Source: Escherichia coli (GTDB taxonomy: Bacteria; Pseudomonadota; Gammaproteobacteria; Enterobacterales; Enterobacteriaceae). From it: a stretch of 64,000 nt of DNA. Made by a program: the position numbers and the translations under genes. This document shows positions 12,888 through 15,418 of this stretch, in pieces; within the stretch, counting starts at the first letter, position 1, and every line of letters starts with the position of its first letter. Where the stretch lies: assembly GCF_003018235.1 (NCBI RefSeq), contig NZ_CP027437.1; one strand, given 5' to 3'. A model generated the notes under the pieces. It had not been told where the DNA came from. It ran no database searches and saw only the letters and a list, made by a program, of their open reading frames with translations.

Positions 12888-14262
12888 CAGCCACACTGTT
12901 GACGACGGACTTTATCTGTTCGTCGGTGCCTGCACGGTTTCAGCCCCCGGAAGGGCTGCGTTCGGGGCTTCACCCCGTTCCCCGGCCTCAGGGTCGCGAT
13001 GCGTTTTCTGCTGCATGACCGTTCAGAACCTCCGTTGATACTCGTCACTCATTACCGTTCGGGCCTTCGGGTGTCATGCCCTACTATGCCCTCTGCTGAC
13101 TCCTGTCCGCCGGTCAGCGCCCCTTACGGTACGCTCAGTTCTGGATACAGAACGACGGACAGGCCTCCCGGGGTAAGTTCAGCTGCCTTCACCACACACC
13201 TGTCCGATTTACCACCCCGGTTCTTGATGGTTATGGCCTTCGCAATTCTTTGCTTGCTCCGCCAACCGGGTAGGCCTCGTATCGGATTTCTGTTCGTCAG
13301 GTCATGGATTTGCTTCACGCTTCCTTCAGACCCCGCTTCACGACGACGCCCTTGCGCTTCGCTAGTCCTTCGCTACCATCAGGCTGGACAGGGGACTTTC
13401 ACCCCCGAGCTGCTGAACATGCCCGGCACACAAAGAAAGCCCCTCCGGAGAGGGGCTGGTATGCGCAATGTTCCATCATCTGCATGGTGCCGGGTGCCTC
13501 CCGGTGAGTCCGGCATCAGCATCCGAACCCGCAATATTGCCCAAATAAAGCTAAAGGATGATTGTGACCTGCTGATTTGCCCCTCCGCACAGGGGGATTC
13601 ACCATGCAGACATTTTCTTAGCAAAATCACTGCGTGCCAGGCAACTCCCAACTACATAAAATGTGGAGTTTGTGGCATTTATGCACATAACTCACAGGAA
13701 TTATCTTAAAAAAGCTGACAGGGCTTCCCCGGCAACGTAATACCATCATTCCCTGAAATGACATCCCCGTATTATCGACAGGCTCAAAAAGGAGCCAGTC
13801 ATCTGAGGATGACTGGAAAAAGGAAAGATAAAAAATTATTCATCATACAACCTTCGTTGCAAGGGAGAATCCTGCGGTGCAGCAACATACAAAAACATAA
13901 GCCAACTAACAATATGCAGGCATAGCATTTTCGGATTTTGTTATATGGCACGGCAACTGAATGCTCACCTGATATACAGTCCGGTATAAAATTGCAAAAA
14001 AAAACGCCAGTTAAGGCGGCATTTAAACAGATAACAGGATTTTTTCGTAATTTCAACAACGTCGGGGTGGCGCATCGTCAGTCCCTGTCAGGAAGTACCA
14101 GCACTCCCACCAACAATGCACCACCCCATTCAGCGTTGTAAAACACGGCACAGGAACTATCAATGTTTTCTGTTACAGTTCGGGAAAAACGATAAACACG
14201 CCACGGGCTCTTTTTGCTGTGAATTAAAAACGGTCCTGAAAGCCGGCTCATCATTTTTTACT

Positions 14263-14339
14263 GGACCGTCACCGGGGACTCGAACCCCGCACTCTCAACA
14301 TAAAAGGTTGATGCTCTTTCCTGATGAGCTAGTGACGGC
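14263..14339 (-). tRNA. phage-encoded tRNA, anticodon read as UUU (Lys-type loop CUUUUAU); identity uncertain
   Basis: 77-nt cloverleaf with 7-bp acceptor stem CCGTCAC/GTGACGG, T-arm CGGGG-TTCGAGT-CCCCG, CCA end. Confidence 0.55.
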
Positions 14340-14340
14340 A

Positions 14341-14416
14341 TGGTGGCCCTTGCTGGATTTGAACCAGCGACCTGGCGGTTATGAGCCGCTCGCTCTCACC
14401 ACTGAGCTAAAGGGCC
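14341..14416 (-). tRNA. phage-encoded tRNA with CAU anticodon, ileX/ileZ-like (tRNA-Ile2 or Met)
   Basis: 76 nt GGCCCTTTAGCTCAGTGG...CTCATAA...GGTTCAAATCC...CCACCA; close to E. coli ileX as I recall it. Confidence 0.8.
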
Positions 14417-14535
14417 GCGCGCAGAATAATAACGTTACGGAATTAATACTGCAATATCTTCAGAAGGCCTGATTAAATGCTGTTCTTCACTTGTCCACCA
14501 GTGTGTTTACTGTACTGCACCAAGTTTACAGGTAC

Positions 14536-14563
14536 AAAAAACCCGCTCAGCGGCGGGTTCTTA
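14536..14563 (-). terminator. intrinsic terminator downstream of Q (tR'-like)
   Basis: minus-strand hairpin AACCCGCCGCTGAGCGGGTT followed by TTTTTT. Confidence 0.5.
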
Positions 14564-14595
14564 AATCTTATCAACGGTAGACATACAAAGCCCAT

Positions 14596-14624
14596 CGTTG
14601 GGAAAATCTTATCCATATTTTTTG
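14596..14624 (-). promoter_or_regulatory. putative late promoter PR' (sigma70-like)
   Basis: minus-strand TTGCAT - 17 bp - TAAGAT between Q stop and the terminator. Confidence 0.35.
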
Positions 14625-14665
14625 AAAAATGCAAGCATAATGTCGTCATCTTCGGCGAAAACCAT

Positions 14666-15418
14666 TTATCTTGTCACCTTTCTCAATTGTATCTCTGCAT
14701 ATGCTTCTTCCTGCCAGCACTTTGTAACCAGTTTATCAATGACATCTGCATATCCTTTGTACCACTGATAATCCGTCAGGTCTGGTACCAGATTCTGGAC
14801 ATGATGCCGCGCCAGTGTGGTTGGTAAACGGCTAAACCGGTTTCCATTGCAACGCCCACAAATCTTATAAACCGGCGTGCCATGAAGCCGGGTTCTTTTT
14901 TCATCCAGGACAATACCTTTACCCTTACACCCTCTGCACGCTGTGCTGACTTCTCCCTTACCATGGCAATGCTGACATAGTTTCTTCACCCACTCTTCCT
15001 TGATAACAGATTCCCCGCTTCTGGAGTGTTTCACCACTTCGCGCAATACATTATGAAATCCAGTACCAGCACAATGCTCACAGCGAGCCTTACTTGCCGC
15101 AGACCTGGAATAATCAGCAAAGGCAAAATTCACAAGGTAAGGGATAATCTGTAACCGGGTTTCTTCACTCAATTTATTCAATGTCGGGTTATCCAGTGCC
15201 ATCGCGTAATTGAGCAGACCTTCAATCGCAAACTGAGGATCCTGAACGCCAACTTTTGCCAGGAATAAGGCAAAACCAAGCGGTGCTTTCGACTGCACCA
15301 TCCCCTGCGCAGCCATTACATCCGTAATTGTTAAACCACCAGAGCCTGTCGCCGGTGCGTCATCGCTCAATTTTGGAGATTTTGGGGAGTAATATTTCGG
15401 TAAGGCTTCAAGGTTCAT
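14666..15418 (-). CDS. antitermination protein Q (QuuQ-like, 250 aa)
   Basis: multiple C-x2-C zinc-binding pairs; size and position (after DUF968, before late promoter) as in Qin prophage. Confidence 0.75.
   Translation of the reverse strand: MNLEALPKYYSPKSPKLSDDAPATGSGGLTITDVMAAQGMVQSKAPLGFALFLAKVGVQDPQFAIEGLLNYAMALDNPTLNKLSEETRLQIIPYLVNFAFADYSRSAASKARCEHCAGTGFHNVLREVVKHSRSGESVIKEEWVKKLCQHCHGKGEVSTACRGCKGKGIVLDEKRTRLHGTPVYKICGRCNGNRFSRLPTTLARHHVQNLVPDLTDYQWYKGYADVIDKLVTKCWQEEAYAEIQLRKVTR

Follow-up and report, generated by a model that had tools for sequence, protein, structure and literature searches.

Directly downstream of a Q antiterminator gene in an Escherichia coli prophage lies an interval of 130 nucleotides that had been predicted, from its letters, to hold a late promoter PR' followed by a terminator tR'. 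It occupies positions 14,536 to 14,665 of the stretch of DNA analysed here, which we call the window (64,000 nucleotides of contig NZ_CP027437.1, assembly GCF_003018235.1), and the features described below are on its minus strand unless stated otherwise. The question is whether this interval is a Q-responsive late switch or only a terminator with promoter-like hexamers in front of it. A Q-lambda-type cassette has been defined as a Q gene, PR', a Q-binding element (QBE), a pause element that depends on sigma70 (SDPE), a terminator and late genes (PMC9388147). In the window we find a Q family gene, a pause element, an intrinsic terminator and downstream late genes, and we consider it very probable that the element is the PR'-QBE-pause-tR' late switch of a lambdoid prophage, of the lambda type and working by the textbook Q-lambda mechanism. 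The chromosomal flank is the opgB-lgoTDR region of E. coli, at 99.9-100% identity.

The Q antiterminator gene

The open reading frame at 15418..14666 encodes a Q antiterminator of 250 amino acids, of the QuuQ/YdfT type within the Q-lambda family, and matches Pfam PF03589 with an E value of 1.3e-53. Its stop codon is at 14668..14666 and the PR' element follows directly on the same strand, so that the predicted location immediately downstream of Q is correct. In BLASTP the protein is 35% identical to lambda Q from end to end (E 8e-41), and its best matches among solved structures are the Q-lambda entries 7UBM (E 1.4e-37), 4MO1 and 7UBJ. Relative to lambda Q it has an insertion of 44 residues in the zinc-ribbon arm (residues ~121-164), which brings the arm to four CXXCXGXG-type motifs; the match of this arm to Pfam DnaJ_CXXCXGXG is below threshold (E 3e-7, 30.9 bits against a cut-off of 32.7) and the NCBIfam DnaJ matches are weak. 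We considered the enlarged arm as an unusual feature and dropped the idea, since most of the Q family has such an arm: it is also found in Evi, ES2, Eho49, SE1 and mEp021 and in degenerate form in phi80 and YeP1, and the solved Q structures represent only the short-arm lambda form. An assignment of the gene to the 'Q21' allele of STEC was rejected as well, since neither the window nor the Stx2c-phage locus contains the Q21 PCR primer; the stx2 primer 595 was found.

In K-12 MG1655 an RNA 3' end at 1643015 on the plus strand is antisense to ydfT, the orthologue of the window Q, and it is the only end that the 3'-end-mapping supplement of that study lists for the Qin orthologue (PMC7815308). This end recalls the anti-Q RNAs, of which lambda paQ (PMC7547250) and the a23 antisense RNA in the P22 record are examples.

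Promoter hexamers and the pause element

The two hexamers of the original prediction, TTGCAT (14634..14629) and TAAGAT (14611..14606) with 17 bp between them, are present as described. TTGCAT, the -35 hexamer, stands at the same position as lambda TTGACT and equals the annotated -35 of phi80 pR', and TAAGAT, the -10 hexamer, stands where lambda has TAAATT. Taken alone, this pair carries no statistical weight because equally good sites are so frequent. TTGCAT matches TTGACA in 3/6 positions and TAAGAT matches TATAAT in 4/6, and the two strands of the window contain 1108 sites that reach at least 7/12, which is 8.7 per kb per strand. Promoter and terminator prediction had been put forward as a check on the element, and a consensus scanner run on the window called neither the 7/12 PR' candidate nor the terminator hairpin. 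A plus-strand site that the consensus scan called at 14578..14607 was set aside as being at chance level (4 found, 4.4 expected). The hexamers alone are therefore meaningless, and the decisive features are two that the original prediction had missed, namely the pause element and the site at which Q is expected to bind.

The pause element is AACGATGGG (14599..14591), a -10-like AACGAT followed by GGG, which begins 6 nt after the -10 hexamer. Both these nine letters and their 6-nt offset from the -10 are identical in lambda pR', where they occupy +1 to +9. Read from the reference sequence, lambda pR' is TTGACT-17-TAAATT-6-AACGATGGG, a geometry equal to that of the window, and an ungapped comparison from -35 to +30 gives 36/65 identities; the lambda comparison was made without gaps, MAFFT having displaced the lambda -35 by a 10-nt gap. 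The 9-mer occurs once in the window, here, and the composite TANNNT-N6-AACGAT likewise occurs once in 128 kb (both strands of the window), at PR'. The chance of meeting the 9-mer on the correct strand of a 130-nt interval is ~5e-4. At lambda pR' the AACGAT at +1..+6 is a -10-like element that is re-bound by sigma70 and gives rise to the +16 pause needed by Q, and the GGG that follows it has been termed 'discriminator-like' (PMC4005639).

Placed on the lambda alignment, transcription in the window is predicted to start at the A at 14599. The elemental pause consensus is G(-10)Y(-1)G(+1), which the G7 of lambda fits together with C16/G17. The window leader offers two combinations that fit the consensus, one of G at +8 and U17/G18 and the other of G at +4 and U13/G14, and the promoter-proximal pause is thus predicted to fall between +13 and +17.

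The window also differs from lambda just upstream of the pause element. According to work of Nickels, Roberts and Hochschild, the lambda TTGACT that lies 1 bp upstream of the pause element reportedly acts as a -35-like element for the repositioned sigma region 4. That TTGACT is absent in the window, where no TTGACA-like hexamer ends 1 bp before AACGAT (the hexamer there is TTTTCC, 3/6), and relatives have TTTTTT, TTCTCC or TTATCT at this position. Repositioning of sigma region 4 to the stretch of DNA that lies upstream of the pause element is described in PMC9388147, which states only the repositioning.

The expected Q-binding site

At pR' lambda Q binds a site of 13 bp by means of a helix-turn-helix body and a zinc-ribbon arm (PMC9388147), and qut lies partly between the -35 and the -10 (PMC6266700). 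The latter study deals with the pR' regions of Stx prophages and does not specifically treat the present module. In the window the corresponding -35/-10 spacer is the 17-nt TTTTCAAAAAATATGGA (14628..14612), which differs in sequence from that of lambda, and we infer that the Q-binding site lies within it. Members of the QuuQ group have almost the same spacer, and from one Q clade to another it changes: the window and K-12 have TTTCAAAAAATATGGA, lambda and P22 have TTGAATAAA(A/G)TTGGG, and Evi, ES2 and Eho49 have TTTCCCGAAnCTGnGG. The pause element stays constant across the same clades while the spacer is clade-specific, which is as expected for a QBE inside the spacer. A comparison with Evi points the same way, because there the segment from the -10 to the terminator is 78% identical to that of the window although the Q proteins are only ~40% identical, and such modularity is what a QBE in the spacer predicts.

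The terminator and the predicted leader RNA

The predicted hairpin with its U6 tract is found at 14562..14536, which corresponds to +38 to +64, and has the form of a tR'-type intrinsic terminator with a 10-bp stem, a 5-bp G+C core and a 6-nt loop. The arms AAGAACCCGC and GCGGGUUUUU enclose the loop CGCUGA (14562..14537), the G+C core pairs 14557..14553 with 14546..14542, and the T6 tract is at 14541..14536. The distance from the promoter, given in the original prediction as about 35 nt, was a slight underestimate: 43 nt separate the end of TAAGAT from the extended stem and 48 nt separate it from the G+C core, which begin at +38 and +43. Folding gave a significant result, the hairpin having a free energy of -13.9 kcal/mol compared with -5.4 ± 2.2 for shuffled sequences (z -3.85), with 0/200 shuffles as stable. 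That the scanner missed the hairpin is probably because the stem extension takes up part of the T tract. In the SfV and Ayreon records a terminator is annotated at the homologous place. The RNA 3' end is predicted at ~+62 to +64, which would give a leader RNA of ~63 nt.

A second TAAGAT stands just before the terminator at 14570..14565 (+30..+35), and we rejected it both as a pause element and as part of a second promoter, since it is confined to the closest subgroup. It is present in the window, SfV, Ayreon and PhiR47_1, F1055 has TAAGTC instead, and it is probably non-functional.

From the order and spacing of these parts we infer promoter activity, a start site, a pause, Q binding and Q-dependent read-through along the following course. 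Host RNA polymerase with sigma70 would start constitutively at PR', with +1 at 14599, and sigma region 2 would then re-bind AACGAT(GGG) on the non-template strand at +1..+9, so that the polymerase would pause close to the promoter in a scrunched state, at about +13 to +17. In the lysogen, where Q is lacking, slow escape from this pause would be followed by termination at the hairpin and U6 tract, at ~+62..+64, to leave the ~63-nt leader RNA. Upon induction Q would bind its DNA site in the -35/-10 spacer and load onto the paused complex, which would become terminator-resistant, and the Q-modified transcription would pass the tRNA genes and reach the genes for lysis and morphogenesis.

At its 5' end the leader RNA is predicted to form a hairpin (14600..14572; CAACG/CGUUG and UGGGC/GUCUA) in which the pause element, as RNA, supplies the 5' arm. 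An equivalent helix, with the pause element as its anchor, can be folded in 14/14 Q-lambda-family leaders examined, lambda included (CAACGA/UCGUUG), and it shows compensatory changes from AACG/CGUU to AACA/UGUU in ES2, Eho49 and SE1, to AAUG/CAUU in 689R6 and to UAAG/CUUA in YeP1. The per-sequence shuffle frequencies of this helix range from 0.004 to 0.17 and the 14 lineages are not independent. The hairpins were compared by anchoring on the pause element, since MAFFT misaligned the 3' arms in lambda, P22 and YeP1. No description of such a hairpin was found in the literature consulted on Q cassettes. If the 5' pairing is under selection, it could make the leader and the late mRNA more stable, or act while Q loads or afterwards. 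That the ~63-nt leader is in this way more than a by-product, with the RNA copy of the pause element having a function of its own, is a tentative suggestion that we think is probably not correct.

A related proposal, which would add to the late-switch reading, is that the leader acts in trans as a small regulatory RNA, possibly one that binds Hfq, in the manner of StxS. StxS, of Stx1 and Stx2a phages with Q of the Q933 type, is a short lysogen RNA whose late promoter is constitutively active and terminated; it is a PR'-tR' by-product that acts as a regulatory sRNA, and its authors propose that this may be general (PMC7547250). The predicted leader would have an sRNA-like layout, with a stem-loop at the 5' end, then a single-stranded linker rich in A and U, and last the terminator hairpin and its U tail, and the module is widespread, with matches to Q or the leader in 4351/5426 complete E. 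coli genomes. On the other hand, StxS belongs to a different cassette and is processed to 74 nt from a primary transcript of 258 nt (PMC7547250), and we detected no sequence relationship between the two. The leader matched no Rfam family in sequence or covariance-model searches, and the linker and terminator sequences are unconserved among relatives, which speaks against a conserved seed. We regard an sRNA function of the leader as unlikely.

Conservation in relatives and comparison with known systems

The module formed by Q and the leader is 96-98% identical in mEp460, Ayreon, SfV, PhiR47_1 and 15 Stx2c-converting phages, and its identity to ydfT (quuQ) in the Qin prophage of K-12 is ~90%. 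Among 13 close relatives, whose leaders are 79-98% identical to that of the window, the -35 TTGCAT is invariant, and the -10 is TAAGAT, TAAAAT, TAGGAT or TAATAT, with A2 and T6 always kept. The pause element is kept in 12/13 of them, the exception being phage 689R6 with AATGATAGG, and AACGATGGGCTTTGTAT is kept in this group. The same 13 relatives have at least three different terminator hairpin sequences, with T tracts that start at +59 to +61. Promoter and pause element are thus kept while terminators are exchanged at the same distance, which argues that position and function have been retained through turnover of the sequence.

More distant phages of the Q-lambda family (Evi, phi80, P22, YeP1, ES2, Eho49 and SE1; Q identity 32-66%) share the same plan, which consists of a -35, a -10, the -10-like AAC(G/A)NT placed 4-7 nt behind the latter, and a terminator not farther away than ~75 nt. 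In two of them the parts have been annotated. The phi80 record gives the -35 and -10 of pR' together with a Q-binding site in the spacer between them and a terminator, and the P22virB-3 record gives a late promoter, a qut-like site, a probable RNA 5' end and t-late, in both cases at positions homologous to the elements of the window. The sequence-level parts of the lambdoid arrangement, among them a candidate promoter and an expected Q-binding site, are all present in the window, in the right order and orientation. In P22 (gene 23/P-late) and phi80 (gene 17/pR') the terminator lies within ~30-75 nt of the start, as it does in the window, and in both its sequence is unrelated to the window's. 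Phi80 further shares with the window the -35 TTGCAT, a similar 3' half of the spacer (AAAAACTGGA compared with AAAATATGGA) and a long zinc arm in Q, and it differs in having a Q of only 41% identity and the pause element AACGCT at 7 nt after the -10. P22 differs from the window in its short-arm Q and its lambda-like spacer.

Lambda pR'-qut-tR' itself resembles the window in having a homologous full-length Q, the 17-nt spacer and the 6-nt gap, the identical AACGATGGG, a 5' RNA helix anchored on the pause element, and an intrinsic terminator before the late genes. It differs in its smaller Q zinc arm, in the window's tRNA genes behind the terminator, and in terminator distance, the hairpin and T tract of lambda tR' lying at ~+175..+194 compared with ~+38..+64 (an RNA of ~63 nt) in the window. 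Termination at lambda tR' yields the 194-nt 6S RNA. Lambda, with its terminator at ~+194, is the outlier in this respect, and the promoter-proximal layout of the window is the common one.

The Q of K-12 Qin (quuQ, ydfT) is 93% identical in amino acids and the promoter and pause element are the same, whereas Qin and its group have another terminator hairpin (AAACCCGCUGAUGAGCGGGUUUU) and cold-shock genes downstream. In the Stx2c phages and SfV, Q is 99% identical to that of the window and the promoter and pause element are again the same; Ayreon, SfV and the Stx2c phages have two small ORFs and a methylase, which the window does not have.

These comparisons bear on the possibility that the hairpin is the terminator of an early or Q transcript only, that the hexamers have arisen by chance and that there is no late promoter here. 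The 7/12 match to consensus and the high frequency of such sites given above speak for this explanation, and the public records annotate at this place a terminator only and no promoter. It would, however, have to treat as coincidence a pause element that equals the one of lambda and stands at precisely the same distance, which is very unlikely by chance; it does not account for a -35, a -10 and a pause element that are conserved in relatives whose terminators have been replaced, nor for the pR' annotations of phi80 and P22 at homologous positions, and it would leave the late genes with no Q-responsive promoter. We consider this explanation very improbable.

Downstream genes and genomic context

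The first genes of the late unit are a tRNA whose anticodon is CAU and a tRNA-Lys(UUU) at 14416..14262 (ARAGORN, Rfam RF00005); ARAGORN calls the former Met, and in relatives RefSeq has it as Ile. A candidate promoter for them consists of TTGCAG (14454..14449) and TATTAT (14431..14426) separated by 17 nt; it matches consensus in 8/12 positions and is below the scanner threshold. Between TATTAT and the first tRNA at 14416 stands TCTGCGCGC, a GC-rich discriminator (GCGCGC) of a kind typical of stable-RNA promoters. That PR' serves mainly these two tRNA genes, and independently of Q, is scarcely credible, because although the genes share its strand and start 120 nt after the terminator, the latter intervenes, the separate candidate promoter abuts the first tRNA, and in relatives the PR' module precedes quite different genes with the tRNAs far away or absent.

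Between tRNA-Lys and the mobile DNA that follows, a segment of ~620-630 nt (14270..13640) gave no megablast match in the phage collection; at the equivalent place the close relative PhiR47_1 has a tRNA-Thr and a tRNA-Gly. A group II intron then extends over ~13637..9609, as indicated by matches to its Rfam D1-D4 domains and to domain V/VI (9681..9609), with a reverse transcriptase ORF at 12896..12012 and a maturase domain ORF at 10148..9705 (Pfam/Rfam). Inside it, on the plus strand, lies an IS21-family element (~10150..12010) with an IstA-like gene (10201..11013, apparently shortened) and IstB (11220..12002), and this element splits the RT/maturase ORF of the intron. An Rfam match to 'sRNA STnc100' (134 bits, 13637..13426) lies upstream of the D1-D4 matches on the same strand and is probably the 5' part of the intron and not an independent sRNA.

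Beyond the intron come, by Pfam match, a nanS-p-like esterase (8924..6885), DUF826 (6642..6223), a lysozyme (5255..4722), Rz (4447..3965), Rha (3815..3198), a small terminase (1397..759) and a large terminase that runs off the window (762..10). This late region is similar to the late regions of Stx2c phages. Behind Q, PR' and the terminator those phages have small ORFs, then a DNA methylase and two tRNAs, and lastly stx2cAB (with RIP and SLT_beta domains), the module lying 2.6 kb upstream of these toxin genes; in the window the stx2c slot holds the group II intron with its IS21-family element. When 5001..9703 of the Stx2c phage LC727876.1 is set against 8924..15418 of the window, the latter has tRNA(CAU) and the nanS-p-like gene and no stx, so that the prophage looks like an stx-less relative of the Stx2c phages. 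The cassette still faces the late operon, with ~4 kb of mobile DNA (the intron and the IS21-family element) between them. This insertion means that the prophage may be defective and the switch no longer in use in this strain.

Significance

In concept the late switch described here holds nothing new, since the mechanism would be the textbook one of Q-lambda and the layout with a promoter-proximal terminator has already been annotated for P22 and phi80. What is added is annotation: PR', the pause element and tR' are placed precisely for the module with Q of the QuuQ/YdfT type, for which public records give the terminator at most. The ~63-nt RNA expected in lysogens, including those of K-12 (Qin) and of the Stx2c phages, could also be a regulatory sRNA like StxS. 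In the Stx2c-converting phages the same module lies upstream of stx2c, and the strengths of its promoter, pause and terminator would therefore bear on the expression of the toxin.
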